From NCBI GenBank assembly GCA_030602805.1, contig JAUVZA010000001.1:2426-66425 (forward strand): 64,000 nt of DNA, read 5' to 3'. This DNA is from Dehalococcoidia bacterium. GTDB lineage: Bacteria > Chloroflexota > Dehalococcoidia > Dehalococcoidales > JAUVZA01. This document shows, in pieces, positions 14,907 through 54,734 of the stretch. The notes under the pieces are model-generated. The model was not told where the DNA came from, did no database searches, and was given only the letters and a program-made list of their open reading frames with translations. A program made the translations under genes and the position numbers. Each line of letters opens with the position of its first letter. Position 1 is the first letter of the stretch.

Positions 14907-17375
<2,469 letters not shown>

Positions 17376-17495
17376 CTACTGATAGCCTCCTTCCTGACCT
17401 CATCAGGCTAGGTCTTACCTAGCGACCAGGAGCTATTAGCTCTTGGTTTCGGCCTACAAGGCTGCGAGAGGGAAATGATAGGTACAAAACACAGG

Positions 17496-35808: not shown

Positions 35809-36075
35809 AATTTTTTGCTCCCTATCTTTGATATTACTGAGCAAGAGCAGGAATTGGTACAGATGGTTGATAAAAAATAGCTTTTGATACTTTGGGCACT
35901 TGACCTGTGCCCCATATAGTTTAGACTCAGCTATAGTATCCTACGGCTTCCAGCGGGGATAAATAGCCCATTAGTAACTTTATGCCTAGGTAATTAGTCC
36001 TATTGGCTTGTTCTGAGAAAGTGCTCAAAGGGAGCTTTGTTAGGTGGAGCCTTAATTGTATTTGCCGCTATCCCA

Positions 36076-38556: not shown

Positions 38557-38634
38557 TCTCCCTAGTTGTAGGTAAGTGATGGGGATGTTACGAAAACTGG
38601 AGTTATTTATTAGATTACCTTGAGGAGAGAGGGA

Positions 38635-40335: not shown

Positions 40336-40344
40336 GGAGAGACA

Positions 40345-41595
40345 ATGGCAAAAACCCTTGATATTCCCACAAAGCGAAAGGTTCTATCTTATCGCTATGT
40401 AGCTGCTACCAGCCAGGGGAAACTGGTGAAAGGCACTATTAAGGCTACCAACGAGGTTGCTGCTGAGCGCCTTCTCATCGGGCAAGGTTACCGTCCCGTA
40501 AATGTGGAGGTTGCTCCTTCTATGTTCAGCCTGGAAGAAGCTTTACCTAGCCTTTTCAGAGTCAAGCCTCGCGATGTGATTGTCTTCTCCCGCCAGCTAG
40601 CTACACTTCTCCGGTCAGGCATTTCACTCCTACCCGCTCTGGAGATTCTCCAGGGGCAAGTAACTGGCAGCAGAGCATTTAAAAAAATCATGGGAACTAT
40701 GGCTGATGACCTTCGCGCTGGCAGCGCATTTTCTCAAGCCATTTCCAAACACCCTAAGGCTTTTAGCGATATCTACTGTAGAACGATTGCGGTTGGGGAA
40801 CAGTCGGGGAATCTGGAAACCGTTTTGAACCGAATGGCTGACTACCACGAGAAACAGGGCGCAACAGCTAAGAAGATAGGCAGGGCTTTAACCTATCCGC
40901 TAATGATTATGGGTGTTGGCATAGTAGTAGTCGTTATTCTTATGACCGTGGTCATGCCTCAGCTACTTGGCATGTTTACTGCTATGAATGTAGACTTGCC
41001 CCTGCCCACCAGGATTCTTATCTGGGTAACAAATTTCCTCACTGCCAACACGCTTTACCTCTTGGTAGTTGGGGTGCTATTAGCTGCCGTGGCACTGTGG
41101 CTGGTCAAACAGCCTTCGGGAAGGCGGCTGCTTGACCGGCTGCGACTCACCATTCCCATAATCGGTCCCCCTACCCTTATGGGAGAGTTAGCTCGTTTCA
41201 GCCGAACCATGTCGGTGCTTATCAGCGCTGGATTGAGTCTGCAAGAAATAATGGAGATGATACCCCAATCCAGCAACAATAGGGTCATCCGTGATGCCTT
41301 AAGTCGGGTCAATGAGGGGCTCCTGCTGGGAGGGGGGCTATCTGAACCGATGTCCCGCATAGATATATTCCCACCCCTCCTCGTCCAGATGGTAGCGGTG
41401 GGTGAGGAAAGCAACACCCTTGATTTTACCCTGGGGGTTGTTGCCGATTTTTATGAGATTACCGCCGAAGAAAAAACGAGTGCCATGGTGGGGATGATGG
41501 GCCCTCTCCTCACCATTGTTATGGCTCTGGGGGTTGGCTTCATCGCTATATCAATACTTATGCCAATGTATACCCTCACCGGAGCCTTTGGCTAA
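40345..41595 (+). CDS. pilC: Type IV pilus platform protein (GspF/PilC family)
   Basis: 416 aa. Duplicated T2SSF domains with three TM segments, directly after pilB. Confidence 0.9.
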   Translation: MAKTLDIPTKRKVLSYRYVAATSQGKLVKGTIKATNEVAAERLLIGQGYRPVNVEVAPSMFSLEEALPSLFRVKPRDVIVFSRQLATLLRSGISLLPALEILQGQVTGSRAFKKIMGTMADDLRAGSAFSQAISKHPKAFSDIYCRTIAVGEQSGNLETVLNRMADYHEKQGATAKKIGRALTYPLMIMGVGIVVVVILMTVVMPQLLGMFTAMNVDLPLPTRILIWVTNFLTANTLYLLVVGVLLAAVALWLVKQPSGRRLLDRLRLTIPIIGPPTLMGELARFSRTMSVLISAGLSLQEIMEMIPQSSNNRVIRDALSRVNEGLLLGGGLSEPMSRIDIFPPLLVQMVAVGEESNTLDFTLGVVADFYEITAEEKTSAMVGMMGPLLTIVMALGVGFIAISILMPMYTLTGAFG

Positions 41596-41685
41596 CAAGT
41601 TAACCGGCAAGGTTAGCAATATTATGAAATGCCTGGAACAAGGGATATTAAGACTTTTTCGAGGGCAAAGCAAGGCTGTTTGGTG

Positions 41686-42087
41686 ATGAAAGTAAGAAAT
41701 AGTCAGAAGGGGTTTTTACTGATTGAAATACTAGTCGGCTTGGCTCTTGTGGGAATCATTGCTGCTGGCTTCATCAATGGGCTATCAACCACTTTCAAGG
41801 GGGTAACCGTGAGCCAGGAGAGAGTGACTGCTGAGAGCTTAGCTAAATCACAAATAGAATATATTAAAGTTCAAGATTATATACCGGTAGCAGAATATGA
41901 CCCTGTAACAAATTGTTATGAGCTAATTGATATTCCTGCAGACCTGGTTGCGGCTGGCTATACTGTTGAAATTAACCCTCCCGAAGCTATTATTAGCGAT
42001 GTGGTTGAACTTCAAAGCATAACAATAGCCATTAAGCGTAATGCTAGGGGAAAGTTAATAACCTCGGTCTATAGGGTGGGGGATTAA
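41686..42087 (+). CDS. Minor pilin (prepilin-type N-terminal cleavage/methylation domain)
   Basis: The class III signal is MKVRNSQKG|FLLIEILVGLALVGI, with Glu at +5. Start set at ATG 41686; the track ORF starts at 41629. Confidence 0.7.
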   Translation: MKVRNSQKGFLLIEILVGLALVGIIAAGFINGLSTTFKGVTVSQERVTAESLAKSQIEYIKVQDYIPVAEYDPVTNCYELIDIPADLVAAGYTVEINPPEAIISDVVELQSITIAIKRNARGKLITSVYRVGD

Positions 42088-42088
42088 C

Positions 42089-42598
42089 TTGATGAAACGA
42101 AGGGAAAAAGGGTTTACCCTGCTTGAGGCACTAATCGGGGTAGCTATAATGGCTATCGTTGTAGTGGCGGTTGCGATGACCATAACGACATTGCTGCTGA
42201 ATGAGGGGCAAGCTGCTGGGCAGAATACGGCCTTGCCTCAGGTGCAGAATGCCGGCTATTGGATTTCGCGTGATGTTCAGATGGCAAGGAACGTCACTCC
42301 CAGTGCCCCCAATGGTTTCCCCTTATCTCTTGACATCCCAAGGGATGATAACCCGGACAATGATTATACCATTGATTATTTGTTTGATGGCGGTAAGCTA
42401 AAGCGCCAGGTTTACGACTCTTTGGGCACTCTGATTTCAGAGACTTTTATTGCTGAGTACATTGATACTAGCAATACCACATTTAGTGCCCTGGACGCCG
42501 ACGCCGGTCTCTATAAGCTCACCGTAAGAGCTTCCAGAGATGAAACTGGGGCAACAAGAAGTTACGAAATTAGCCAGCGGCTCAGTTCGAGCAGTTGA
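42089..42598 (+). CDS. Minor pilin (prepilin-type N-terminal domain)
   Basis: MMKRREKG|FTLLEALIGVAIMAIV class III signal. Confidence 0.75.
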   Translation: MMKRREKGFTLLEALIGVAIMAIVVVAVAMTITTLLLNEGQAAGQNTALPQVQNAGYWISRDVQMARNVTPSAPNGFPLSLDIPRDDNPDNDYTIDYLFDGGKLKRQVYDSLGTLISETFIAEYIDTSNTTFSALDADAGLYKLTVRASRDETGATRSYEISQRLSSSS

Positions 42599-43734
42599 GG
42601 AGAGGGAAGCAAAAGGTGAAATTACTGAAGAGCAGGGAATCTGGACAAACCATGGTAATGGCTTTAATCCTGCTGGCGGTGGGTAGTTTGCTGGTGGTCC
42701 CGATGCTGAACCAGTCGTTTACCAACCTGGGGTATCACCAATCAATCGAGTGTAGGACGTTGACTAGTTACTCTGCCGATTCTGGCGTGGAATATGTATT
42801 GTGTAAGTTATATAACGCACCAGGCGCATATACGGAAACCCCTTTGCAAGAGAGTCTTACCCTCAACGACAGAACGGTAAATGTTACTGCTGAATATATG
42901 GGTGGCGGTATCTATGATATAACCTCTGTCGCCAGTGGTGGCGGTTGTGGCAGCACAACAATTGTATGCTATGTCAACCTGAGCGCCGGTTCCTTCGCCT
43001 TCGCTATCGCGGCTAAGGATTACATGCATATTGACAACACTACGGTTGACTCATTACCAGCCCCGGGTGGTGAGGCCAATATCCATTCTAACGGGGATAT
43101 TGACCTAGTCGGTGCTCAAACAGTGGTCAACGGTGATGCCTCTGCCGTAGGCATAATTTCCGGGTGGGACAAGGTTAACGGGGTGGTTACGTTCCCCAGC
43201 CCGCCGATACAGTTCCCCGGCGATTACTCCGAGTTATACGAGATGATGGCACGGGAAGGAGAAGACAGCCCGTGGGAGGGCGACTATCTCATTACGGGTG
43301 GAACCCAATACCTGGGACCATTATATATCAATGGGGACCTAAAGGTTGAGGATGCAACACTAATACTTGAAGGGACGGTGTATGTTACTGGTATGATTAG
43401 TGTGGAAAACGGCAATATTGACGGAGAACAGACGGTGGTTGCCGAGGGTAGTATACGCATCGAACAGGGTGCCGTTCGTTCTGAGATTATCCCACTCATT
43501 ATCTCTACAAAGGTCGACGGTGAAATCTACTCGGAGACGGGGACAACGGTGGATGGAGTATTATATGCCCCTTACGGCAGTATCAGGTTAGAAAATGGTG
43601 TTCGTTTATACGGTGCTGCCGGTGGAAAGACGGTTAATATACAAGGCTGCACCATCACCTATGCCAAAGAGCTTCAAGGTCGCCAGGACCTGCCTGGCGG
43701 TGAACTGGTAACTATCAGCTACAGCTATAAGTAG
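42595..43734 (+). CDS. PilX-N-like large pilus-associated protein
   Basis: The N-terminus ESGQTMVMALILLAVGSLLV resembles the PilX N-terminal hydrophobic segment. The rest is Gly/Val-rich and probably beta-rich. The start is uncertain (TTG 42595 or GTG 42616). Confidence 0.5.
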   Translation: MRRGKQKVKLLKSRESGQTMVMALILLAVGSLLVVPMLNQSFTNLGYHQSIECRTLTSYSADSGVEYVLCKLYNAPGAYTETPLQESLTLNDRTVNVTAEYMGGGIYDITSVASGGGCGSTTIVCYVNLSAGSFAFAIAAKDYMHIDNTTVDSLPAPGGEANIHSNGDIDLVGAQTVVNGDASAVGIISGWDKVNGVVTFPSPPIQFPGDYSELYEMMAREGEDSPWEGDYLITGGTQYLGPLYINGDLKVEDATLILEGTVYVTGMISVENGNIDGEQTVVAEGSIRIEQGAVRSEIIPLIISTKVDGEIYSETGTTVDGVLYAPYGSIRLENGVRLYGAAGGKTVNIQGCTITYAKELQGRQDLPGGELVTISYSYK

Positions 43735-43761
43735 TGGGCTAGAAATTACTGAGGAGCAAAA

Positions 43762-44148
43762 ATGACGCAAGAAACTGAAGTTCCCAACCAGATTAGCCTG
43801 GAAATGGAACGAACGGCTGCCCGGAGGGCAAGGGACAGAGCCAAAAATGCCAGGTGGGACCTTAATGTTGCCATATTCTTGTTTGCCGTTTTGATTCTTG
43901 TCATAATCCTGGCTACATATACAAAAATGGGAATTGAGATTGTGGCGCCAGTTGCCATCTTTGGCTTAGCCATGGCCTGGCTGGTGGGGTGGAGGCGGGG
44001 AAGGGAATTATACCAGCACTTCTACGATGAAGAGCTATCAAACTTGGAGCAGGAGCAAAAGTTAAAAATAAAAAAGACGGTTAAGGAAGCGGTAGAGGAA
44101 ACAATAGAGGAGAAGGTTCAGAAGGCACTGCGTGAGAGGTGGCGATAA
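43762..44148 (+). CDS. Membrane protein (2 TM + charged coiled-coil tail), function unknown
   Basis: 128 aa. A GAGGAG RBS precedes the ATG. Two hydrophobic helices and a Lys/Glu-rich C-terminus. Confidence 0.45.
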   Translation: MTQETEVPNQISLEMERTAARRARDRAKNARWDLNVAIFLFAVLILVIILATYTKMGIEIVAPVAIFGLAMAWLVGWRRGRELYQHFYDEELSNLEQEQKLKIKKTVKEAVEETIEEKVQKALRERWR

Positions 44149-44154
44149 CCGGAG

Positions 44155-44445
44155 GGATTAAATTCTAAACGTTTTGGTCATTAGTGCTTTGTATTTGTTC
44201 CGAAAATAGAATGCCTTAATCCTTCTGTCATTCTGAGCCGAAGGCGAAGAATCTCAAACCTCCTTTAGACCCTTCCCCTTCCCCTTCACTTCGTTCAGGG
44301 TCAGGGTGACATAGAAGTGGCTGAATGCTTACCACCCTTTTTCATCATTCGTTGGTGGGCAGTCGCCCATGGGCGTTTGTTTAGAGTTTAGTCCGCCTAA
44401 GGCGGATAGTATTTAGAATTTCCCGCCCCCTATTAAGGGAAGGGG
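44155..44445. repeat. AT-rich palindromic MITE/IVS-like element, copy E4 (about 200-bp non-coding insert)
   Basis: The termini GGGATTAAATTCTAAAC... and ...TAGTATTTAGAATTTCC are shared with copies at 46.8, 48.2-48.8 and 50.8 kb. Boundaries are within about 10 bp. Confidence 0.6.
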
Positions 44446-44476
44446 GGAGTGTAAGCTGAAAAAGAGGGACTGAAGA

Positions 44477-45055
44477 ATGGAAGTTATAAAGAACCTGCTC
44501 ATCAGATTTCGCCAGTCGGGAGTTCTACTTTTAATCGGTTTTTTCCTTATCATCTACATTGCCTTTGGCTTTGTCTATTGGCAGCAAGGCTCACAGCAAA
44601 AAGAACTTGAGGAGCAATCCGCCAAAATAAGCCTCATAGTCGCTAGGCCATTACCCAGCGAGGAGAAGTTACGGGCAGAATACGATGAAGCTAACCTTTC
44701 TCTCGCTCCAATGACAGATAGTGATGCCATTGCCATACTCGTTGGCATAGCTGAGAAGAGCGGAATTGATACTAGCCCTGATAGCGGTAAGCTCGTTGTT
44801 CCCTCAGCCCAGGTCGGGGAGGAGAAGGTGGGGGGAGGCACATATCAGGTTTTTTCCTTCAAGAATATCAGTGTGCAGGGTGATTATAGCAATGTCATCG
44901 CTTTCATCTCCGACCTTGATTCGGGTGAAACACGGGAGACCATAGCGCTGAAAAAGGTAACTATTGGCCAGATTGAAGTTAAGGGCGAAGGTGAAGGGGA
45001 AACCAAAACTGAGACTAAGGCTACACTGGATGTTGACCTCTATACTAAACTTTAG
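44477..45055 (+). CDS. PilO-like pilus assembly protein
   Basis: 192 aa. Short cytoplasmic N-terminus, a single TM (VLLLIGFFLIIYIAFGFVYW), a coiled coil and then a globular domain. Positioned before pilM/N. Confidence 0.45.
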   Translation: MEVIKNLLIRFRQSGVLLLIGFFLIIYIAFGFVYWQQGSQQKELEEQSAKISLIVARPLPSEEKLRAEYDEANLSLAPMTDSDAIAILVGIAEKSGIDTSPDSGKLVVPSAQVGEEKVGGGTYQVFSFKNISVQGDYSNVIAFISDLDSGETRETIALKKVTIGQIEVKGEGEGETKTETKATLDVDLYTKL

Positions 45056-45097
45056 GGTGGTGGCATTTGATGCCGGTAGTCAGAGGAGAAAGCAACC

Positions 45098-46522
45098 TTG
45101 GCTAAGAGAATCGTAACCCTTGAAATAGATACCACTGCCATCAGGTTCATGGAGACCAGTGGGGGAAGAGTAGTAAAATGGGCAAGCCTCTCTCTTGAAC
45201 CCACCATGGTTGAAGACGGGGTGATTTCAGACCCCCGGGCTCTGAGCGCTGCGGTCAGACAGCTTATGGACTCAAGTGGTATAAAGGCGAAGGATGTCAT
45301 TGCCAGTGTCAGCGGTCTTTATTCGGTAAGCCGTATCGTGGCGGTATCCAACCCGCCCGGGGGGGTAACCACCCCAGAGGCAGTTCTAGAGGCGGCAACG
45401 GATATAATGCCCTTACCTACGGATGAGCTGTATCTCTCCTGGCAGCTTATCGCCGCCGGTGGGGGTGCCCAGCAAGTGCTTGTGGTGGGTGTGCCCCGAG
45501 ATGTGATAGATGCTGAGATGCAAGCCTTGAGGGCGGCGGGCATCAATTCCCGTACACTGGAGCTCAAGGCTATAGCTCTAGTCAGGGCAGTGAATAAGGA
45601 GCAGGCTCTCATCCTCAATATTGAGCCCTCCAGCTTTGATATTGTTATAGTGGTTAATGGCATACCTGAGGTTATGCGCACCCTAGCCTGGCAGCCGGAT
45701 GGTCTTACCGTGGAAGATAGGGTAGAGCACCTGGCGATGAATCTGGAGATGATAGTGGGCTTCTATAATTCGCATCACCCCGATACTCCCCTCAACCCGG
45801 CTACCCCCTTCTTTATCACCGGGCAGATGTCCAGAGACCTCGACCTGGTGGAGAAGCTGCCAGCCAGGGTAGGCTATCCTATTGAATCACTGGCACCACC
45901 GTTAGAGTGTCCCAAGCACATGCCTGTCTCCCAGTATGCCGTCAATATCGGGCTTGCCCTGAAGGGGAGGACGCCAGCTAAAAGTCTGGAGCAGGATGGC
46001 TATGTGCCGCCCGATATCAATCTCCTGCCCGAAACCTATAAAGCATGGAAGCTTTCAGCCAAGCAGATATACTTCGCTGGTGCTGTAATAGCCGCCATTG
46101 CCCTGCTATTCCCTCTATATCAGATGACTGCTGGGGCTATGGATAAGACGGCTGACCTGCAGGCAAGATATAATATCCTCAATAATGAGCTGCTACGGAG
46201 GCAGCTTGAAATTAAAAACCGTGAACCCCTGCAGAAGGCTATTGGTGAATATAATACCATTGCGAATATGGGCGGCGGCTTCACCGAAGACCTGAGGGTT
46301 ATTAACAGCGAAGCCGACCGACTCGGTGTTCAAGTAGAGTCTGTTGTCCACCAAGGCGAGAGTATCACCATGACCTGCCAGACAGAGCCTGAGAGCCATA
46401 TCGTTTTTAGAGAATACGTAGCCAGTCTGGAGGAAAGCGGCCGCTTCGCTACGGTTACTCCTCCCTCTGAGAAATTCGCCTATATCACCGGCGGCACTAT
46501 TGAGCTTGAGCCCGCCCAGTGA
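45098..46522 (+). CDS. pilM: PilM-PilN fusion protein
   Basis: 474 aa. Actin-like ATPase N-terminal region (IVTLEIDTTAIRF...), followed by a TM helix (IYFAGAVIAAIALLFPLY), a coiled coil and a PilN-like tail. Confidence 0.7.
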   Translation: MAKRIVTLEIDTTAIRFMETSGGRVVKWASLSLEPTMVEDGVISDPRALSAAVRQLMDSSGIKAKDVIASVSGLYSVSRIVAVSNPPGGVTTPEAVLEAATDIMPLPTDELYLSWQLIAAGGGAQQVLVVGVPRDVIDAEMQALRAAGINSRTLELKAIALVRAVNKEQALILNIEPSSFDIVIVVNGIPEVMRTLAWQPDGLTVEDRVEHLAMNLEMIVGFYNSHHPDTPLNPATPFFITGQMSRDLDLVEKLPARVGYPIESLAPPLECPKHMPVSQYAVNIGLALKGRTPAKSLEQDGYVPPDINLLPETYKAWKLSAKQIYFAGAVIAAIALLFPLYQMTAGAMDKTADLQARYNILNNELLRRQLEIKNREPLQKAIGEYNTIANMGGGFTEDLRVINSEADRLGVQVESVVHQGESITMTCQTEPESHIVFREYVASLEESGRFATVTPPSEKFAYITGGTIELEPAQ

Positions 46523-46634
46523 GTAAGCGCGTGAGAAGCAGGGTGTTCTAAGAGGGGCGCCGGTCCCTCTTAAAGTAATCTTCCCCTTCCCCTTACTAAG
46601 GGGAAGGGGATAAAGGGGATAGGGTTACTAATTC

Positions 46635-46823
46635 TCAGATACGACTGACCACCTTGAGGTCATAGAGTTCAATATAGCCGCACCTGGGACAAAAATAAAG
46701 GGCAACGGATAGCCCCGGCGAATGCTCTGAGCTCACTATTCCTCTCCTTACCAGCTCAAAGGCGCCATCCCCCGGCTGTAATTGTGCCTGACACCGAGGA
46801 CATATCTTAACCACTGAATTCAT
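46635..46823 (-). CDS. Small zinc-ribbon protein
   Basis: 62 aa with CPRC...CPRC. Confidence 0.4.
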   Translation of the reverse strand: MNSVVKICPRCQAQLQPGDGAFELVRRGIVSSEHSPGLSVALYFCPRCGYIELYDLKVVSRI

Positions 46824-46842
46824 AGTTTTACCCCACCTTGAT

Positions 46843-46976
46843 TAAATCCTAATATCTAAATCCTAAATACTAAACAAATCCTAATTTTCAAATTTCAAAA
46901 CTGCTTAATCCTTTTGGATTTTGGTTATTTGATATTGTTTAGAGTTTAGAGATTAGTATTTAGTATTTTTTCACAA
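46843..46976. repeat. AT-rich palindromic MITE/IVS-like element, copy E1 (empty)
   Basis: The left arm AAATCCTAATATCTAAATCCTAAATACTAAACAAATCC and right arm TTGATATTGTTTAGAGTTTAGAGATTAGTATTTAGTATTT form an imperfect long inverted repeat. Confidence 0.6.
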
Positions 46977-47015
46977 AAGGACAGGTGCCCGATTTTATGC
47001 TTCCCGGACACCTGT
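46972..47015 (-). terminator. Intrinsic terminator downstream of the pilin genes
   Basis: On the minus strand the hairpin CAGGTGTCCGGG-loop-CGGGCACCTG is followed by TCCTTTTGTG. Confidence 0.55.
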
Positions 47016-47075
47016 TCTTCATACCTCCGCTTCCACCAAAACCCTGTTAAACCATCTTTATCATACTATGGATTA

Positions 47076-47543
47076 TTAATACCCGGTGCTTGCTTGGTCC
47101 ACCGTTCCAGAGGCATCAACAGTATAGGTGCCCTTGGTGGTGTCTGTAGCCAAATAGTTGACCAGTCCGGTTCCAAGACCATCGGCCATTATATCGTGCT
47201 GATAGAGTAGAAATCCATCCAGGTCACCAGCTGCGTATGCAACTCCATCGGGGTCATTTATCTTGTCAACAGTGATTGCCGAGGTCGCATCGGGGAAGGC
47301 ACCCATATCGCTAGTGGCTACGGCTATCGGATTGGGCAGTGAGCTCAACTGGTTATCAACCATCAGGGCAATCACGGCTGTCTGGACGTTGGCGAACTCA
47401 GTTTCTGCCGCCTCCTCCTCACCAGCGCCGATGAACCGTCCCACATTGGGGATGACCACGGCTGCCAGCACACCAAGGATGGCAACCACGATGAGCAACT
47501 CAATCAGGGTAAACCCCTTCTCCCCCCTTTTAGGTAATCTCAT
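47076..47543 (-). CDS. pilA: Type IV major pilin, copy 1
   Basis: 155 aa. Class III signal MRLPKRGEKG|FTLIELLIVVAILGVLAAVV. No Cys. Confidence 0.85.
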   Translation of the reverse strand: MRLPKRGEKGFTLIELLIVVAILGVLAAVVIPNVGRFIGAGEEEAAETEFANVQTAVIALMVDNQLSSLPNPIAVATSDMGAFPDATSAITVDKINDPDGVAYAAGDLDGFLLYQHDIMADGLGTGLVNYLATDTTKGTYTVDASGTVDQASTGY

Positions 47544-47600
47544 TTCCTAGCCTCCTTCTCACCTCACCCCATTTTATTGAGGTAAATATGCCACAGATTA

Positions 47601-48068
47601 TTAATACCCGGTGCTTACTTGGTCCACCGTTCCAAGTAAATCAACAGTATAGGTGCCCTTGGTGGTGTCTGTGGCCAAATAGTTGACCAGTCCGGTTCCA
47701 AGACCATCGGCCGTTATATCGTGCTGGTAGAGTATAAATCCATCCAGGTCACCAACTGCGTATGCAACTCCATCGGGGTCATTTAGCTTGTCAACAGTGA
47801 CTGCCGAGGTCGCATCGGGGAAGGCACCCATATCGCTAGTAGCTACAGCTACCGGATTGGGCAGTGAAGCCAGCTCGTTATCGGTCATCAGGGCAATCAC
47901 GGCTGTCTGGACGTTGCTGAACTCAGTGGCTGCCGCTTCCTCCTCACCGGCACCGATGAACCGCCCCACATTGGGGATGACCACGGCTGCCAGCACACCA
48001 AGGATGGCAACCACGATGAGCAGCTCAATCAGCGTAAACCCCTTCTCTCCTCTTTTTGGTAGTCTCAT
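47601..48068 (-). CDS. pilA: Type IV major pilin, copy 2 (tandem paralog)
   Basis: 155 aa, with the same leader. About 90% identical to copy 1. The duplicated unit spans 47071-47561 and 47596-48086. Confidence 0.85.
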   Translation of the reverse strand: MRLPKRGEKGFTLIELLIVVAILGVLAAVVIPNVGRFIGAGEEEAAATEFSNVQTAVIALMTDNELASLPNPVAVATSDMGAFPDATSAVTVDKLNDPDGVAYAVGDLDGFILYQHDITADGLGTGLVNYLATDTTKGTYTVDLLGTVDQVSTGY

Positions 48069-48150
48069 TTCCTAGCCTCCTTTCCTCCTTATTTTTGCTC
48101 CCTCCCTGAAAGAGAGAAAGCTAGCCCTTTCATTTAAGGCTACATATGAC

Positions 48151-48198
48151 AATATAAGGCATAGCGCTGCTGCTGGCAATCCTGCAAATGGGTGATTT
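48151..48198 (-). promoter_or_regulatory. Pilin promoter: the same 23-nt conserved box + TTGCCA-N17-TATATT
   Basis: The reverse complement of 48176-48198 is AAATCACCCATTTGCAGGATTGC. The -35 is at 48179-48174 and the -10 at 48156-48151. It lies about 80 nt upstream of ATG 48068. Confidence 0.55.
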
Positions 48199-48237
48199 TT
48201 GAGGGTGAAAGACTAGCTCTTTTAGGTGAGGGAGACT

Positions 48238-48832
48238 AAGTCGCTTCGCTCCAAATCCTAAATCCTAAGCACTAAATCACAAATAAATCCCAAATGTCAA
48301 AATCCAAATGACAATTGAAATCCAAATGCTTAAATGCCAAAACTACTTCTTCTTAGGCAAAAGAATAGAAGAAAATATCAAAGTAAGTTCTTGGGCTTCC
48401 CTCAGTAACTTTTGGCATTCATCTCGTCTATTGGGATTTGCTTTTGCAATCATTCTGAGCCAATGCTTTGTCTCTTTTGACTCTTTTTTGCAGATAGAAA
48501 TTTTATGTCGGAAATCTTTCTTGGATTCTGCTCCATCTGCTTCCATGTAGTTTGCCCCAATACTGGTTCCTGACCTTACTATTTGACTCATAAGTGAACT
48601 ATTGATAGGGTCTTTAGGGAGAGTTTTTACAAATTCGATAATAGCTTCACCGAATTGTGCTGTTCGTTCTTCAAGGTCATACTTCTTTTTGTCATTTGGA
48701 TTTTGGGCTTGATTTGACATTTGAGCCTTGTTATTTGGCATTGTTTGGAATTTTACCATTTGGTCATTTGATATTGTTTAGAGTTTAGAGATTAGTATTT
48801 AGTATTTCCCGGATTAGTATTTAGAATTTCCC
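48238..48832. repeat. Palindromic MITE/IVS-like element, copy E2, carrying the four-helix-bundle ORF
   Basis: The left arm (48238-48342) and right arm (about 48700-48832) are mutually complementary AT-rich low-complexity sequence. The termini are shared with E1, E3 and E4. Confidence 0.6.
48343..48759 (-). CDS. Four-helix-bundle protein (23S rRNA intervening-sequence protein family)
   Basis: 138 aa. SIGANYMEADGAESKKDFRHKISICKKESKETKHWLRMI is the hallmark of this family. The N-terminal QNPNDKK low-complexity stretch is encoded by the element arm. Confidence 0.8.
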   Translation of the reverse strand: MVKFQTMPNNKAQMSNQAQNPNDKKKYDLEERTAQFGEAIIEFVKTLPKDPINSSLMSQIVRSGTSIGANYMEADGAESKKDFRHKISICKKESKETKHWLRMIAKANPNRRDECQKLLREAQELTLIFSSILLPKKK

Positions 48833-49501
48833 CTATTCCTTGTATTGGGCAAGCCCTTTCTCAATGGCATAAGCCGCTGCCTGGCTTCGGTTGACCAGGT
48901 GCAGCTTTTCCATAATATTCCGCAGGTGGGTCTTTACCGTGTTCTCGGAAATAAACAGGGAATCAGCGATTTTCTTATTGCTCCCCCCTTGAGCCACCAG
49001 TTGCAGCACCTCTCCTTCTCGTGGGCTCAAGTCAGCATCGGTTCCCTGAATGGATTCTCTCTCCACCCCGGCGCTGAGGTCTTTGAACTCGGTGAGTAGC
49101 GTTGTTGCCATAAGAGGGGAGACTATCACTCCACCCTGGGCAATATGAAGAATGGCATGAATCAGCTCATCTGGCTCGGTATTTTTAAGAATGTAACCCC
49201 TGGCACCAAACTTCATGGCGGCGAAGAGGTCAGCCTCCTTGTCAGAGACGGTCAGGACGAGGACATTAACCTGGGGCATCTCTGTCTGGAGGGCTTGAAT
49301 GGCTTCTAATCCACTGCAGCGCGGCATATTTAGGTCCATCAAAACCACATCGGGGGCGATTTCCTTAGTCTTTTCTATTGCCTCCAGTCCGTCTAAGGCT
49401 TCCCCCACCACCTCTAGGTTTTCCTGGTTAGCCAATACAGCGGCGATGCCACGGCGAAACAAGGTATGGTCGTCCGCTACCAGTACTTTAATAGTGTCCA
49501 T
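48833..49501 (-). CDS. NarL/FixJ-family response regulator
   Basis: 222 aa. Canonical REC residues and the LuxR HTH LSPREGEVLQLVAQGGSNKKIADSLFISENTVKTHLRNIM. Confidence 0.9.
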   Translation of the reverse strand: MDTIKVLVADDHTLFRRGIAAVLANQENLEVVGEALDGLEAIEKTKEIAPDVVLMDLNMPRCSGLEAIQALQTEMPQVNVLVLTVSDKEADLFAAMKFGARGYILKNTEPDELIHAILHIAQGGVIVSPLMATTLLTEFKDLSAGVERESIQGTDADLSPREGEVLQLVAQGGSNKKIADSLFISENTVKTHLRNIMEKLHLVNRSQAAAYAIEKGLAQYKE

Positions 49502-49502
49502 T

Positions 49503-50678
49503 TCATAACCTCACTTTCTCAACGGGAAGGCTGACCCTTACTTCTGTCCCCTCCCCGGGGGCGGTAGAGATATTCAAGCTGCCGCCAAGCCCCTCTGCCC
49601 TTTCTTTTATGATGTTCAGTCCGTGGTAGCCGGGCGGGGATTTTTCAAGGTCGGAAAGGTTGAAGCCCTGCCCATTGTCCTTGACGAGCATCTCCACTGC
49701 CTGGCTGGTCTGCTCCAGTTTCACCTCTACCTCAGTAGCTAGGGCATGCCTTCTAACATTGGTCAGTGCCTCTTGGGCAATGCGCAGAAGCTGCAGCTCA
49801 GCGACAGGGGAAAGCTGGGGGAAGGCTCGGGAGACATTAAATTGAACCGGGATAGCATTATTATCGCCGAATTCCCTGGTATAGTTGGCCAGGGCGGGTA
49901 TTATGGGAAGGGTTCTTACCTCGGCACTTAATTGGTCAATGGATTCCCTGATGTCCTCATAGGTATCTTGCACTATCTGTCGAATGTCGCCAAGCTCGGT
50001 GAGCGCCTGCGCAGTGTTCTGGGAAGAGACTGAATCGCTTACTTGCTTTGTTTTTAGATTAAGGTAACCGAGTGACTGTGCCACCCCATCGTGTATTTCC
50101 CGGGCAATTCTTCGGCGCTCCTTAATAATAGCCTCCCTTTCTATACGCCGACGGATATTCAGGTTAGTGCGGTAAGGCACAATGGCAGCCACAAAGCTGA
50201 AAAGGGTATAGATTATCAGCAGGGTGAGATTATGTCCTTGCATAATCCAGGTAAATCTCTCACTAAACTGACCCAGAGCCAGGTGAGTAATGGAGAGGAA
50301 GATGGAGGCGGTAGCTGCCAGGGAAAGAGCCACCCTTTCCTCAAAAAGAAGGGCTGCCGTCATAATAGGGATAAGGGAATAGAGCAAGAAGGGGCTGTTA
50401 AGACCGTTGGTGTAGATAACCAGCAGGATGCAAAGCAAAAAGTCACCTATCAGAATTAGATAGGTCATCAGACTTCTCTCCCGCCAGCGGAGAGGAGAGA
50501 AGACTTTCAAGATGGTGTAGACGCCAAGCACACCCAGGATTATATAGAGTTGAATGAGAGGCATTGCTGGAGCACTTAGTCCTGGCACAACCTGCGTGAA
50601 CATCACCGCCAGGGCGTAAGCCAGAAAGCGGTAGGTCGCTAGAAACTGGTATGCCTCTCTTTCATATCTGGTCTGCAT
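49503..50678 (-). CDS. Sensor histidine kinase (5-6 TM, HisKA_3, HATPase_c)
   Basis: 391 aa. H-box RIAREIHDGVAQSL and a C-terminal ATPase with G-boxes. There is a 1-nt gap to the downstream regulator. Confidence 0.85.
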   Translation of the reverse strand: MQTRYEREAYQFLATYRFLAYALAVMFTQVVPGLSAPAMPLIQLYIILGVLGVYTILKVFSPLRWRERSLMTYLILIGDFLLCILLVIYTNGLNSPFLLYSLIPIMTAALLFEERVALSLAATASIFLSITHLALGQFSERFTWIMQGHNLTLLIIYTLFSFVAAIVPYRTNLNIRRRIEREAIIKERRRIAREIHDGVAQSLGYLNLKTKQVSDSVSSQNTAQALTELGDIRQIVQDTYEDIRESIDQLSAEVRTLPIIPALANYTREFGDNNAIPVQFNVSRAFPQLSPVAELQLLRIAQEALTNVRRHALATEVEVKLEQTSQAVEMLVKDNGQGFNLSDLEKSPPGYHGLNIIKERAEGLGGSLNISTAPGEGTEVRVSLPVEKVRL

Positions 50679-50756
50679 TTTTTTACCACTATTAAACTAA
50701 AGCATCTTATCTCTATATGTCAAGTAGACTAAAAACGAGTTGTTTATTAAGGGGAT

Positions 50757-50912
50757 TAAATCCTAAAGTCGCTTCGCTCCAAACCCTAATATCTAAATCC
50801 TAAATCCTAAACAAATTCTAATTTCTAAATTTCAAATTTAAAATCGTTTAGTTCCTTTGGATTTTAGACATTTGATATTGTTTAGAGATTAGAGATTAGT
50901 ATTTAGAATTTC
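50757..50912. repeat. AT-rich palindromic MITE/IVS-like element, copy E3 (empty)
   Basis: GGGGATTAAATCCTAAAGTCGCTTCGCTCC...TTTAGAGATTAGAGATTAGTATTTAGAATTTCGCC. It shares the GTCGCTTCGCTCC box with E2. Confidence 0.6.
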
Positions 50913-50923
50913 GCCATGAGCCA

Positions 50924-51757
50924 TTACAGATACCACTGCCAGATTGCCTGTCCCCAAAGCAGGGTAACCATAGCTGATGTAGCCAGGAAAGGGGCAAAGG
51001 GTATAGGGTCGCTGCGCTTCTTAATCTTGAAAGCAAGTAAAATGGCAGCCACCAGACCGCCGGTTATCACCCCTAGCAACAAGGCTATGGCTACTAAGGG
51101 ATAGCCGCTCATTAGTCCTACCAGTGCCCCTAGCTTGACATCCCCCATCCCCATCCCACGGCGATAGATGATAAAAGGCAGTGCCATAGCTGCCAGACCG
51201 AGAGCTCCTCCTGCCAGTGAGCTGACTACCTTGCCGAGGGCTTCTCCCGGTAGCGCACCTATCCCCTCAAGCCCCGGCCAGAAAAAAGAAAAGGCGAGGG
51301 CAAGTGCCATACCGGGGTAGATAACCTTGTCCAGGACCAGTTGGTTTTCCAGGTCAATAGCGAAGATGACGGTTAGCAAACTGGTGTAGACGAGAGATAT
51401 ACCCAGCTCCAGCCCAAGCCCGAATTTCCAGTAGAGTAAAGCAAACAGGAGACCGGTCACTCCTTCTACTATGGGGAGCCTGAGGGGTATGGGAGCTCGG
51501 CAATAGCGGCACCGACCACGCAGCCACAGATAGCTAAATATGGGGAGGAGGTCAAGAGTGCCCAGTTCACGGTTACAGGCAGCACAATGAGAACGAGGGT
51601 GAATTATAGATTGTCCCCGGGGCAACCTGTCTATACACACATTCAGAAAGCTGCCCACGAATAAACCCAGCAAGGCAAAAACCAACATCAATAATAAAGA
51701 CAACTTTTTATATTTTCCTATACTAAACTGGATTGTGTCAGAGCTATGATACCTCAA
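50924..51757 (-). CDS. pilD: Prepilin peptidase (A24 family)
   Basis: Zinc-binding motif CIDRLP...CAACNREL...CRYCRAPI, catalytic Asp context GMGDVKL, and multiple TM helices. The true start may be Met24 (51688). Confidence 0.85.
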   Translation of the reverse strand: MRYHSSDTIQFSIGKYKKLSLLLMLVFALLGLFVGSFLNVCIDRLPRGQSIIHPRSHCAACNRELGTLDLLPIFSYLWLRGRCRYCRAPIPLRLPIVEGVTGLLFALLYWKFGLGLELGISLVYTSLLTVIFAIDLENQLVLDKVIYPGMALALAFSFFWPGLEGIGALPGEALGKVVSSLAGGALGLAAMALPFIIYRRGMGMGDVKLGALVGLMSGYPLVAIALLLGVITGGLVAAILLAFKIKKRSDPIPFAPFLATSAMVTLLWGQAIWQWYL

Positions 51758-51821
51758 GGGAGTGAACTAAGCAACGCTCTGGTTACGAGGATGTGGGACT
51801 CCTGAATATTCAAAGGCGTAT

Positions 51822-52832
51822 TTAGCCTGCCCTAAGTATCTTCTCTTCCTCGGTGGGCTGGCGGCGGCTTCTGACGCACCCCGGCGGGAACTTAATTTCC
51901 TCGACCTCAGGTTTCACCTCTTCCGCCTTGGGTGCTCTCTGTTCCATAGTCTCCATTAGGTGAATCAGAACCTTATTCTGCTCAGCGGCACCCTTTTTAA
52001 GCTCCTGAGACGCCTCGCTTAAGCCCTGGATGGCACTGGTATGGCTCTTCAGGTGCTGGGCATACTCGGCTATGGCTGAGGCGAAGCTGTTTAGTGCTTG
52101 CTGTGTGCCTGCCATCCCCTTTTCAGAGGTCTCTATCCTCCGCTCCAGTATCCGGCTGCTACGCTGACTTGCTTCAATCACCGGGGCAAATATGCCCCTC
52201 TGCACCGTCTGCCTGCCCCGGCTAAGCTCATCAGCGTAGAGATAGAGGGCAAGGAGGGATAGACCTATGACTACAAAGATTAGCCCGTAGTCGCTCTGCA
52301 TAAACAGGAGGGGGAAGCCAAGGTAGGGGATTCGGTTACTCACCTGCCCCTTCAGGTCTTCGGCTCGCACCATAAACGGGTCTTCACCGCCGGCATTATC
52401 GCCTTGGGTGCGGAAGGTTACGCCTCTTTCTGAGGTATCTACCCTTACCACCCGGTGGGCAACTACTACCGGGTAGTTATAGGCTTCCCGGACCATAGGT
52501 GGAACAGTATAAACAATAACATCACCAACCTTGATGTCAGAGGGCGATACCTCTTCAATCAGGATTAGGTCACCTGGCTCATACTCCGGCTCCATACTGG
52601 TGCCGAAGATAGCCATAAACGGCATTACCCCTCTAATTGAGAGGAAGCCAACAGTAACTGCGGCTATTATCAGGGTAAGTGCCAGCGCTCGCTTCATACC
52701 TCTAATAGAAAGGAAGGCGGCAACATATCTCGCTATTATTGATATGAACCACAGCACTCCTTTCACTCCTCTAATGAAGGGAGAGCCAGTAACACGGGCT
52801 GCTATTAAGATGAATCTCAATGCTCGTTTCAT
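51822..52832 (-). CDS. SipW/Sec11-type (ER/archaeal-type, S26B) signal peptidase with a long C-terminal extension
   Basis: Catalytic motifs GTSMEP (Ser), VVAHRVV (His) and QGDNAGGEDP. A second TM helix and a coiled-coil tail of about 130 aa follow. The N-terminal MKRAL...FLSIRG segment is duplicated, so Met46 (52697) is an alternative start. Confidence 0.75.
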   Translation of the reverse strand: MKRALRFILIAARVTGSPFIRGVKGVLWFISIIARYVAAFLSIRGMKRALALTLIIAAVTVGFLSIRGVMPFMAIFGTSMEPEYEPGDLILIEEVSPSDIKVGDVIVYTVPPMVREAYNYPVVVAHRVVRVDTSERGVTFRTQGDNAGGEDPFMVRAEDLKGQVSNRIPYLGFPLLFMQSDYGLIFVVIGLSLLALYLYADELSRGRQTVQRGIFAPVIEASQRSSRILERRIETSEKGMAGTQQALNSFASAIAEYAQHLKSHTSAIQGLSEASQELKKGAAEQNKVLIHLMETMEQRAPKAEEVKPEVEEIKFPPGCVRSRRQPTEEEKILRAG

Positions 52833-52847
52833 TTTAGTCTCTTACCC

Positions 52848-54734
52848 TCACCTCTGCATAATCAGGCAGTAGAATTCCGGGGTTATCGTCCACCCCACCT
52901 CCCACTCCGATGTGTCCGTTGAAACCAGGCAATAGCTACCGCCGGCAACCTCCACCGTAAAAGATACAGCTTCGGCACTATAAGTTATGCTAACATCGCT
53001 CAATGTAGGCGTGTCACCGCCAGGACCGGAGAAGTATGCCTTGTATTGAATCCAGCGGTCGCCATCATGAACTGAGTTGATGTTGGTGCCGCTGGTGGTG
53101 TAGTAATCACCGGTCCCGGTAGGTCCATACCAGGTAGCGGCACTAAGCCCGCCTTCAGTCGCTGCCGTCCTTATCTGAAACTGGATATTTGTTGCTGACG
53201 GCTCATCTATGGTAAAGGAGATAATGCCCCAATCGGCATCATGCCCACTGTCATAGGTTGACGAGGTCAGGTCACCTGATGCATAGTATGTTGAAAAATT
53301 CACACTTATCTCATCCAGAACTGGTGTGTCGGTTCCGTCAGAGGTGAATTCCATTTTATAATAAAAGTTGTCTCCAGACCAGCCCAAGCCAGACAGGTCA
53401 ATTGAGTGCGAGCCTTCAGATAGCGTATCCCATTGGTCAGAATTACCGGAAGAATCATACCAGGTTGAACTATCTTGTGAAAATTGAACCTTTAAGCCGG
53501 TTCCTGAAGGAATAGCTGAGGCGTTGTAGCCAAAGCTGTCTATGCTTACCACTGTCTCGCCGGATAATAGATTAACCGAGGTAAGCGTTCCTGGCGAATC
53601 GTAAGCACTATAATTAACCTCAGCATATACCTGTGTGACCCGTGTGTATTTGCCTGCCTGTGATGCCCTAAGGCCAACACCAATTTGTAGGGCATCTATT
53701 TCAGCCCAGGTCCATGGTTGACCCGTTTGCGGGTTGTTATCCCATTGATAGTAATAAGGAGCATAACTAGTAGTAACTTCTATCCCAACGGGAGGATAAG
53801 GAGCAGTGTATTCCACGCTGTTGGTCTTGATGTGAAGGTAGAGACCATCCTGCTTTATCTTCTCTCCCTTAGCCACCGCATAGACCCTAATATAATTAAT
53901 ACTGCCGGAGCCGGTGGAGTGGTCAGCGATATTGTATAAATCCTCCTGCCAGTCCCACCAATCGGTGGCAATATAAGTGGCATCGTCATCATGGGGCGTC
54001 TCGTCGTCTACCTTATCCCAATGTTCTCCCCCAATTGGTACCTGCTCTGCGACCTCAGCCTCGTCGCCAGCGTCGTTTGGTCTCAGGGTTTCTGTTGCAC
54101 CGGCGCCGCCAGCGGTAAGTTTGACCTGACCGCCATCAACAACAAGATTAGTCTTGGCAGCAATCAAATTTTCATTGTCAAAGCTGTCAGTTACCGTATC
54201 AGAAAAGGTGTCAAGTATCACATCCCCCGGGCTGATGACATCAACCTGGTTTAAGGTGCCGCCCTGGAAATCAGACTGACTTGTTTGAATCCAGGTACCT
54301 TCGATACCGGCGATGTCCTGTATATTAAAGGTAGCCTCTCCATTTTGTAGGGTGAGCAGCTGATAGTTGGGCGTCTCTCCCGCCTCCACCGAGCCGTCCA
54401 GGTATAGCTTCATATTGAGATAATCATATGCCTTAACTAAGTCACCGGTATTAGTCAGGAAAACCTTTACCGCCAAGTCCCCAGTGTATAGGGAATTCGG
54501 GGTTATATCAAACAGGCCGTCGCTAGGCACTTCACCCATGAGTGGCGGGTCTTCGGGAGGCGTCAGGATAGAATTCCAATTAGGCTGAGTGGCAGACGGC
54601 GCAGTGGTGGCTATTGCCTCCTCAGCTACAACATCCATTGTTGCCGTAGTTGTGGTGTAGGCAAAGGCATATAAGCCACCGGTAACTACCAGGGCTAGCA
54701 CTAAACCTATTATTAACTGCCACTTCCTTTTCAT
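52848..54734 (-). CDS. Large secreted protein with a SipW-cognate-type signal peptide (fibre-subunit paralog 3)
   Basis: Start at Met22 (ATG 54734, forming a TAATG overlap with the upstream stop). Signal peptide MKRKWQLIIGLVLALVVTGGLYAFAYTTT. It shares the LFDITP...TGDLAVKV.LTNTGDLVKAY core and the C-terminal TSEWE.GWT.TPEFYC.I.QR motif with the 349-aa paralog. Confidence 0.6.
   Translation of the reverse strand: MKRKWQLIIGLVLALVVTGGLYAFAYTTTTATMDVVAEEAIATTAPSATQPNWNSILTPPEDPPLMGEVPSDGLFDITPNSLYTGDLAVKVFLTNTGDLVKAYDYLNMKLYLDGSVEAGETPNYQLLTLQNGEATFNIQDIAGIEGTWIQTSQSDFQGGTLNQVDVISPGDVILDTFSDTVTDSFDNENLIAAKTNLVVDGGQVKLTAGGAGATETLRPNDAGDEAEVAEQVPIGGEHWDKVDDETPHDDDATYIATDWWDWQEDLYNIADHSTGSGSINYIRVYAVAKGEKIKQDGLYLHIKTNSVEYTAPYPPVGIEVTTSYAPYYYQWDNNPQTGQPWTWAEIDALQIGVGLRASQAGKYTRVTQVYAEVNYSAYDSPGTLTSVNLLSGETVVSIDSFGYNASAIPSGTGLKVQFSQDSSTWYDSSGNSDQWDTLSEGSHSIDLSGLGWSGDNFYYKMEFTSDGTDTPVLDEISVNFSTYYASGDLTSSTYDSGHDADWGIISFTIDEPSATNIQFQIRTAATEGGLSAATWYGPTGTGDYYTTSGTNINSVHDGDRWIQYKAYFSGPGGDTPTLSDVSITYSAEAVSFTVEVAGGSYCLVSTDTSEWEVGWTITPEFYCLIMQR

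Follow-up and report, generated by a model that had tools for sequence, protein, structure and literature searches.

Why does an AT-rich palindrome recur four times within 7 kb of a type IV pilus locus, in one case with a gene of the 23S rRNA intervening sequence (IVS) protein family in its loop? The question is raised by a 64-kb stretch of DNA from a Dehalococcoidia bacterium (contig JAUVZA010000001.1), hereafter the window, in which copies 1 to 4 of the element lie between pilus genes. Proteins of the PF05635 family, to which the encoded four-helix-bundle protein (IVP) belongs, were first found in the long-hairpin intervening sequences of 23S rRNA genes. The four copies represent a dispersed repeat family with versions that bear an open reading frame (ORF) and versions that do not. 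Its members are intergenic palindromes, polymorphic for insertion, in which complementary arrays of degenerate heptamers make up the two arms; their build is IVS-like, but they are placed between protein-coding genes. The hairpin is a carrier, its loop being empty or holding either an IVP cassette with inner arms of its own or a 176-nt module. Our preferred explanation, that these are IVS-type hairpin cassettes residing in mRNA operons and spreading by arm homology or hairpin targeting, is held as a whole with moderate confidence.

Four palindromes with heptamer arms

A repeat search of the window places a shared left arm at 46844, 48253 and 50781 (family D2) and a shared right arm at 46891, 48730 and 50834 (family D3). 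The right terminus GATTAGTATTTAGWATTTCC (family D4) and the sequence TTGTTTAGAGTTTAG (family D7) are present in all four copies, the former with a second, tandem copy at 48812. All copies are co-oriented, and their arms and termini are absent elsewhere in the 64 kb. The right-terminus pattern has nine matches, every one within 44404-50911, against 0.08 expected, and the TTGTTTAGAGTTTAG pattern has six against 0.16. Non-repetitive stretches of about 50 nt are in addition common to copies 2, 3 and 4 at 85-96% identity. These results confirm the first-pass annotation of this DNA in its claim of four elements with shared arms and termini. The left end that it considered common to all is found in copies 1 and 4 (GGGATTAAAT), but copy 2 has a shorter form of it and copy 3 has ACTAAGTCGCTTCGCTCC in its place; the left terminus GGGATTAAATYCTAAA (family D17) occurs at 44154 and 50752. 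The two ends, also described as imperfect reverse complements, are so when GGGATTAAATYCTAAA is compared with TTTAGAATTTCCC.

Two of the copies are empty hairpins, as had been claimed. Copy 2 (46840-46972, plus strand) separates the second pilin gene from a zinc-ribbon ORF of 62 aa. Copy 4 (50752-50915, plus strand), whose left terminus is GGGATTAAATCCTAAA and which also has the insert AAGTCGCTTCGCTCC, lies between the stop codon of the prepilin peptidase gene and the promoter region of a PilS-like kinase gene. The ORF-bearing copy 3 (48238-48833, plus strand) has an outer left arm at 48238-48333, an outer right arm at 48759-48811 and inner arms at about 48282-48341 and 48689-48758, and its extra tandem right terminus (48812-48833) adjoins the stop codon of a response regulator gene. 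Copy 1 (44154-44425, plus strand) is composite: a left arm that opens with GGGATTAAATTCTAAA (44154-44199) and a right arm that closes with TAGTATTTAGAATTTCCCG (44376-44425) enclose a non-coding cargo of 176 nt (44200-44375).

The arms are arrays of degenerate tandem heptamers, AAATCCT on the left and TTTAGAG/ATTAGTA on the right, and not merely the AT-rich, low-complexity sequence that had been reported. The arms of copies 2, 3 and 4 contain period-7 arrays according to Tandem Repeats Finder (AAATCCT, GTTTAGA, TTAGTAT); those of copy 2 are 4.6 units of TAAATCC and GTTTAGA/TTAGTAT, and all nine period-7 arrays of the 64 kb fall inside these three elements. Autocorrelation at lag 7 is elevated in six of six arms (z +3.9 to +5.7). 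The GC content falls from about 0.50 in the flanks to 0.28-0.36 at three of the four elements.

The long hairpin attributed to the elements is well founded for copies 2 and 4, which fold with -30.9 kcal/mol (z -4.6) and -27.3 kcal/mol (z -3.4), respectively, when compared with dinucleotide shuffles, but not for copy 1, which has no end-to-end fold. In the minimum-energy fold of copy 3 the ends pair around the ORF and the inner arms contribute a perfect 17-nt repeat (48298-48314 with 48689-48705), and the fold of the whole 621 nt is no better than that of shuffled sequence (z -1.3). An enclosing stem formed by the ends is seen in copies 2 and 4, and in copy 3 the ends pair as do the inner arms. 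The stems exceed 22 bp, a duplex length compatible with excision by RNase III. In 12 related elements 45-74% of the bases are paired upon folding.

One may ask whether AT-rich, low-complexity sequence could give rise to such likeness by chance. With a GC content of 0.28, the arms are much richer in AT than the flanks (about 0.50), and heptad similarity inflates alignment scores. Yet the pattern counts exceed expectation by far, alignments between copies reach z 13-19 and folds z -3.4 to -4.6 against shuffled sequence, and the element is conserved across genomes, by which chance similarity is refuted and its probability is negligible.

Filled sites, bare sites and exchangeable cargo

The orthologous sites were compared in 80 metagenome loci that were identified by scanning with the kinase (74-91% identical) and that have the same gene order; loci are designated by L numbers. 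Loci with the same repeat belong mostly to metagenome-assembled genomes of Dehalococcoidia and other Chloroflexota. The peptidase-kinase site, occupied by copy 4 in the window, is free of modules in 24 of 43 loci, and in 17 of those it is 57-73 nt long; the closest relative (L019, kinase 91% identical) is among the bare ones. An AT-heptad hairpin is present in nine of the 43 and other modules in the remainder. The regulator-pilin site of copy 3 holds nothing in 20 of 37 loci and then measures 152-190 nt in many. Seven loci are bare at the site of copy 1 (9-66 nt), where L060 and L036 have an empty hairpin, and five at the site of copy 2 (L057, L036, L031, L023 and L055).

This distribution bears on the possibility that the elements are host regulatory structures of the pilus locus, such as terminators, attenuators, mRNA stabilisers or protein-binding arrays, which are kept by selection. 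In agreement with such a role, all four are situated at boundaries between pilus transcription units, 0-100 nt from stop codons, IVP paralogues occupy two further positions in pilus loci, and copies 2 and 3 bracket duplicated, hypervariable pilin genes. Selective maintenance is difficult to reconcile with sites that are bare in about half of the close relatives although these keep the genes and the conserved promoter sequence, with unrelated modules at the filled sites, and with the same elements adjoining ABC-transporter, oxidoreductase and other genes. The first-pass annotation suggested, as possible roles, those of terminator, RNA-processing site or recombination hot spot. A scan for intrinsic-terminator patterns found none at the AT hairpins except a weak match inside copy 3 (48705-48728). 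We therefore regard a regulatory origin as distinctly improbable.

The first-pass annotation proposed a MITE-like family (MITE, miniature inverted-repeat transposable element), with autonomous and non-autonomous copies. A dispersed family with full and reduced versions is indeed present, but the data support neither a MITE in the strict sense nor autonomy, the latter because the ORF encodes a small four-helix-bundle protein without known transposition activity. A classical MITE would be moved by cut-and-paste through a transposase supplied in trans from elsewhere in the genome, with the IVP gene as a passenger. Much in the elements resembles this: four copies in 7 kb are palindromic, intergenic and polymorphic for presence, about half of the orthologous sites being bare, the ends GGGATTAAATYCTAAA and TTTAGAATTTCCC are imperfectly complementary, ORF-less derivatives exist, and IVP homologues are mostly found on short contigs, as with assembly-breaking repeats. 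However, the target-site duplication that had been suggested as a check was found at none of the four positions when filled and bare orthologous sites were compared, the mosaic content blurring the junctions. Nor was an element seen that combines matching terminal inverted repeats with a transposase: the one ORF-bearing relative encodes a four-helix-bundle protein, and the neighbouring genes compared with Pfam (window 34990-35844 and 37252-55783) include none for a transposase. Moreover, the left end is not constant between copies, and complementarity extends over whole arms built of variable numbers of heptamers. Heptamer arms of unrelated sequence also flank IVP genes in other phyla (see below), which argues for a design of gene plus heptamers rather than one pair of transposase and terminal repeats. 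A classical MITE is in our opinion quite unlikely.

Arms and loop contents can be told apart by comparing the copies. The outer arms of copy 3 (48238/48257-48333 and 48759-48811) have counterparts in copies 2 and 4 with 85-87% identity and z 17-19, whereas the intervening 425 nt, which comprise the ORF and the inner arms, are missing from these two copies; aligned with a synthetic copy 3 from which the ORF was deleted, they score z of about 13. Conversely, close IVP homologues in another genome (L017 and L018) carry the inner arms only, and their N-terminal codons (MxNxKAQMSNxxQNPN) pair with sequence directly past the stop codon. Taken together, these observations show that in copy 3 the loop of a hairpin of the AAATCCT type accommodates an IVP core cassette.

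The regulator-pilin site of L023 holds the same IVP element (protein 88% identical), whereas L047 and L033 hold a different IVP (47-49% identical) within outer arms of the same kind, which we read as exchange of cargo in a resident hairpin. A solo right terminus, cTTAGTATTTAGAGCTTC, is kept at several bare regulator-pilin sites and two tandem right termini are found in the window, L023 and L036, suggesting that new material enters beside an existing terminus. Behind the IVP gene of L145 stand ATGACAAATGATAAAAAGAAGTAG and a second 3' arm; this is the remnant of a cassette whose ORF was removed between AAGAAGTA microhomologies of the N-terminal KKKY and the C-terminal KKK-stop codons.

The cargo of copy 1 was initially taken for about 200 bp of unrelated sequence, a description that does not hold. 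The 176-nt module recurs almost invariant at three other places, two in L049 (about 4700-4900 and 6890-7090) and one in L020 (about 3000-3180), with the same junction to the right arm at each occurrence. Its predicted helices include TGTCATTCTGA with TCAGGGTGACA, and it is a candidate for an unclassified small RNA. Rfam, at gathering and at permissive E-values, returned no family for the hairpins, the cargo or the box described next in the window and five related loci.

Within the cargo lies the box GTCATTCTGAGCCGAAGGCGAAGAATC (44227-44253, plus strand), a hairpin with the outer stem ATTCT/AGAAT that is present once in the window. The box class, GTCATTCTGAGC...GAAGAATC, combines a constant outer stem and a GA/GAA internal loop with a variable inner stem, its module formula being GTC-ATTGC-GA-[variable stem-loop]-GAA-GCAAT-C. 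It is represented by 78 instances in 25 related loci (including L020, L029, L037, L054 and L083) with 44 different inner stem-loops, all of which stay complementary, and the modules are often in inverted pairs. The box resembles an independent small repeat whose structure is constrained. It was also considered as the core of a hammerhead ribozyme, which was rejected upon inspection of the sequence as the CUGAUGA/GAAA core is incomplete.

Other palindromes are nested in the arms or replace them. The mini GC hairpin TCCGCCTAAGGCGGA (44392-44406, plus strand) lies in the right arm of copy 1, and mini hairpins (TCCTTC..GAAGGA) occur at the same right-arm point, just before TAGTATTTAG or a variant of it, in L082 and L083; two more are found in the right arm of L041 and one in a truncated arm of L025. 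The GC-rich module CTAAGAGGGGCG...TCCCCTTCCCCTTACTAAGGGGAAGGGGATAAAGGGGATAGGG (46545-46630), which contains a terminator-like hairpin and the perfect 14-nt inverted repeat I16, gives a strong terminator-like match on the minus strand (46610-46582) and is separate from the AT hairpins. Homologous modules occupy the site between peptidase and kinase in L023, L073, L035 and L042 and that between regulator and pilin in L053. The palindromic modules of these genomes hence form a hierarchy in which they nest in one another. The loop of copy 2 (46901-46934, minus strand) matched the Rfam family CRISPR-DR46 with 31 bits and E 0.07, which is below threshold and was treated as chance. Some predicted CRISPR repeats might nevertheless be hairpins of this sort, and published reports place PF05635 genes near CRISPR loci.

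The type IV pilus cluster occupies about 37-52 kb of the window according to the Pfam search and encodes a PilB-type ATPase, a PilC-type platform protein, minor pilins, a PilM-like protein, two tandem pilins, a LuxR-type response regulator, the PilS-like kinase and the prepilin peptidase. The pilin genes (47076-47543 and 47601-48068) are a tandem duplicate with 92% identity over 300 nt, and copies 2 and 3 stand on either side of the pair in direct orientation. Between orthologous loci the pilins are 47-98% identical and the kinase and regulator 66-98%, and the direct repeats may promote exchange of the pilin cassette. Just downstream of the copy 4 site, CTACTTGACATATAGAG is conserved on the minus strand in the window (50700-50735) and in every orthologous locus, and probably represents the -35 region of the promoter of the kinase gene; copy 4 lies between the peptidase stop codon and this sequence. 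Pilus loci are recurrent hosts of the elements: IVP paralogues 83-89% identical to that of the window are found elsewhere in the pilus loci of L145 (2501-3250) and L150 (2501-3300), their contexts being PilM | IVP | T2SSE ATPase and Mrr-like | IVP | pilin.

The IVP gene and its arms in other phyla

The IVP gene (48343-48759, minus strand) encodes 138 aa from the first ATG, and the start conserved among homologues is probably MPNNK at 48741, which yields 132 aa. The protein matches PF05635 (E 3e-19, 69.6 bits, cut-off 33.8) and TIGR02436 (E 7e-25, 87.3 bits, cut-off 24) and keeps the family motif RSxxSxxANxxE, Q59, S66 and A69 being invariant and R62 nearly so in the alignment of homologues. 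Among solved structures, 2RLD is reached with E 1e-15 by sequence and 3e-43 by profile and 2GSC with a profile E of 5e-3; both were deposited with five chains. PADLOC and PHROGs contain no match to the protein. The ratio of nonsynonymous to synonymous substitution rates (dN/dS) is 0.11-0.23 in six pairwise comparisons, indicating that the protein is under purifying selection. At E <= 1e-5 the search for homologues found 7985 proteins; more than 120 clusters are 79-100% identical, and the best 120 stand mostly on contigs of 0.5-5 kb, as would be expected of assembly-breaking repeats.

Copy 3 has the same orientation as its flanking genes. Inverted repeat I8 contains the annotated start codon of IVP together with the weak AAGG that precedes it, and the N-terminal QNPNDK codons, correctly assigned to an arm by the first-pass annotation, form part of the inner arm (perfect repeat I5). 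The region of translation start is thus located inside the stem.

The design extends well beyond the window. Exact matches to the 21-nt right terminus were found in 16 genomes of several phyla, and in one genome each of Saccharimonadales, Sphingobacteriales and Chloroflexi the right terminus directly flanks a PF05635 ORF with AAATCCTAAAT-type arms. As the right-terminus search had selected for the arm, a sample unbiased in this respect was taken from plasmids by tblastn of the IVP protein against PLSDB, and 14 loci were examined from six phyla, among them Cyanobacteriota, Bacteroidota, Spirochaetota, Chloroflexota and Bacillota. Period-7 arrays are found beside the IVP gene in all 14, mostly on both sides and reverse-complementary, and their units are lineage-specific (GTAATTC/TTACGAA, ATTCAAA/TTTGAAT, CCAGTTA/ACTGGTC, AATTAGG/TAATTCC). 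In a 40-kb Monoglobus control the two strongest period-7 arrays were those flanking the IVP gene, and in a Chlorohelix control the gene-flanking arrays were among the strongest. On IMG/VR contigs such arrays adjoin 14 of 21 IVP homologues, nine of them on both sides.

With these data, a local origin of the arrays can be assessed, in which simple-sequence repeats grow in place by slippage, are immobile and only happen to have IVP genes among them. Slippage has been proposed as the origin of the cyanobacterial short tandemly repeated repetitive sequences (STRR) and of the GGGAATC repeats of Xanthomonas. Intergenic heptamer arrays, often as inverted pairs, are described for Xanthomonas, Nostoc and Beggiatoaceae (PMC4692102, PMC4679880), the repeat number differs between the copies studied here, and AAATTCC arrays without an ORF occur in L017. 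Such growth would hardly produce cargo and arms with identical internal junctions at unrelated sites, as in the window, L049 (twice) and L020, the non-repetitive stretches common to copies 2, 3 and 4, a right terminus identical in 16 genomes, or arrays at each of 14 plasmid IVP genes that are rare in the surrounding 40 kb. The recurrence of the same junction in particular leans against a purely local origin, which we consider unlikely. The L017 arrays themselves (6-7 copies each; 12852-12900, 14007-14049, 16655-16697 and 17434-17482) number four within 5 kb of a Dehalococcoidia-like genome with two IVP genes and are possible empty relatives of the elements.

Of 22 contexts, 19 have the IVP gene in the sense direction (p 0.0009), mostly between co-directional neighbours that resemble operon partners: RND adaptor | IVP | RND permease, hsdS | IVP | hsdR, DrmD | IVP | MmeI, and DUF1156 | IVP | HEPN. 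Plasmid IVP genes are often located in defence operons (L102, L104, L108, L110, L111 and L112), namely DISARM drmD | IVP | MmeI, helicase | IVP | N6 methylase, hsdS | IVP | hsdR and cas2 | IVP | cas1, and DUF1156 | IVP | Swt1-HEPN is found at the same position in a cyanobacterium and on a Chloroflexota plasmid. An IVP-type gene between cmr3 and cmr2 was noted earlier (PMC3936711), and the PF05635 family has been reported in rRNA insertions of bacteria of the candidate phyla radiation. In the literature, for which full-text coverage is incomplete, no publication was found that connects inverted heptamer arms with PF05635 genes outside rRNA.

Several observations weigh against hairpin cassettes that act as RNA and spread between operons. 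Hairpin stability is equal on both strands, a search for G-U pairs that favour one transcript having revealed no asymmetry (seven of 12 elements, equal means), and RNAalifold on ten empty elements gave eight invariant pairs and zero compensatory changes. Because indels between heptamers spoil the alignment, the latter result neither supports nor rejects an RNA structure. A palindrome at the DNA level would explain the structure just as well. Copy 1 runs antisense to the adjacent genes, as do three of the 14 plasmid IVP genes. Seven of the 21 homologues on viral contigs are without heptamer flanks (L118, L126, L128, L131, L132, L133 and L137); when these were considered as Avd genes of diversity-generating retroelements (DGRs), no adjacent reverse transcriptase was found in the four with searched neighbours, and two stand beside a phage integrase. 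Identical IVP proteins in differing contexts were sought and three proteins were found in one context each, giving no direct sign of recent movement. The occupancy of orthologous sites would be compatible with gain as well as with loss.

Still, cassettes carried in operons are the explanation that we prefer, and by analogy with rRNA IVSs a mode of persistence can be proposed. The element would be transcribed by read-through within the host operon and its RNA would fold into a long duplex, which is probably cut by RNase III as in rRNA IVSs. Such cutting would part the neighbouring cistrons and excise or control the IVP message, and this would make an insertion inside an operon tolerable. A stem of 7-bp repeats can pair in several registers and would therefore survive slippage that alters the repeat number. 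For spread and exchange of cargo, homologous heptamer arms would recombine with each other, or insertion would be targeted to existing hairpins or termini, with no part for a self-encoded transposase. The IVP protein, by sequence a relative of pentameric proteins, probably binds the repeat nucleic acid.

A bolder generalisation, which we offer tentatively and consider rather doubtful, is that heptamer-bracketed PF05635 genes constitute operon intervening sequences across phyla. These would be selfish sense cassettes, excised by RNase III and spread without a transposase, with a pentameric protein that reads the heptamers; the 23S IVSs would be their special case in rRNA, and orphan heptamers such as STRR and the GGGAATC pairs their empty relics. 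The regularity across phyla is a more interesting result than the elements of the window themselves. ORF-bearing, ORF-deleted and cargo-swapped versions at polymorphic sites also provide a tractable comparative system. In practical terms, the elements fragment metagenome assemblies, sit within operons that include defence and pilus loci, may punctuate operon mRNAs and could be mistaken for CRISPR-like or regulatory repeats.

Comparison with known systems

MITEs, repetitive extragenic palindromes and bacterial interspersed mosaic elements (REP/BIME), Correia elements and the small dispersed repeats of cyanobacteria are, like the present elements, small, multi-copy, intergenic, palindromic, insertion-polymorphic, nested and assembly-breaking. 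The present elements differ in that neither a target-site duplication nor a matching transposase was found for them, in that their arms are heptamer arrays, and in that a subset carries a conserved gene not encoding a transposase.

DGR Avd genes are commonly assigned to PF05635 as well, the family of the IVP protein; the solved IVP relatives 2RLD and 2GSC are five-chain depositions. The IVP sequence profile reaches these two structures and not those of Avd. No reverse transcriptase was found among the Pfam-searched flanking genes, and no pair of template and variable repeats stood out in the repeat search. As none of the flanking genes searched encodes a reverse transcriptase, the IVP gene of the window is not a DGR Avd gene.

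Intergenic tandem arrays of 7-nt units are shared with the STRR and GGGGATT repeats of cyanobacteria, the GGGAATC repeats of Xanthomonas, often in convergent inverted pairs, and the TAACTGA repeats of Beggiatoaceae. Alike are also the frequent inverted pairing, able to form stem-loops, and the variable copy number. The present units differ in being AT-rich (AAATCCT) and part of composite elements with unique sequence and cargo. An IVP gene of Planktothrix is flanked by AATCCCC, the cyanobacterial STRR1 unit. Searched by term, the accessible portions of PMC4692102 and PMC4679880 do not mention any gene for a four-helix bundle, S23 or an intervening sequence.

The closest likeness is to the 23S IVSs of Leptospira, Coxiella burnetii, Xanthomonas and Brucella, in which a sense PF05635 ORF is likewise located in the loop of a stem formed by the ends, in the window a property of copy 3 only. 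In the 5' arm of the C. burnetii IVS, three to four GACAGAT heptamers separate the RNase III site from the start codon of the PF05635 ORF, and the stem is cut by RNase III (PMC4990558). A heptamer arm upstream of the start codon is hence a feature in common with bona fide IVSs, as are the position of the start region in the stem, a GC content below that of the host, ORF-less and ORF-decayed versions and a sporadic distribution. On the other hand, the four copies lie between pilus genes and not in helix 9, 25 or 45 of 23S rRNA, and Rfam finds one tRNA and no rRNA in the window; by location they are not IVSs in the strict sense despite their IVS-like build. The ORF of the window is under purifying selection whereas that of Coxiella is decaying, the outer hairpin also holds non-coding cargo and nested mini-palindromes, and excision by RNase III, demonstrated for rRNA IVSs, is here proposed by analogy. 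The origin, mobility and function of the 23S IVS and its conserved ORF have been a puzzle since about 1990 and intergenic heptamers have been likewise puzzling; the architecture described here links both.

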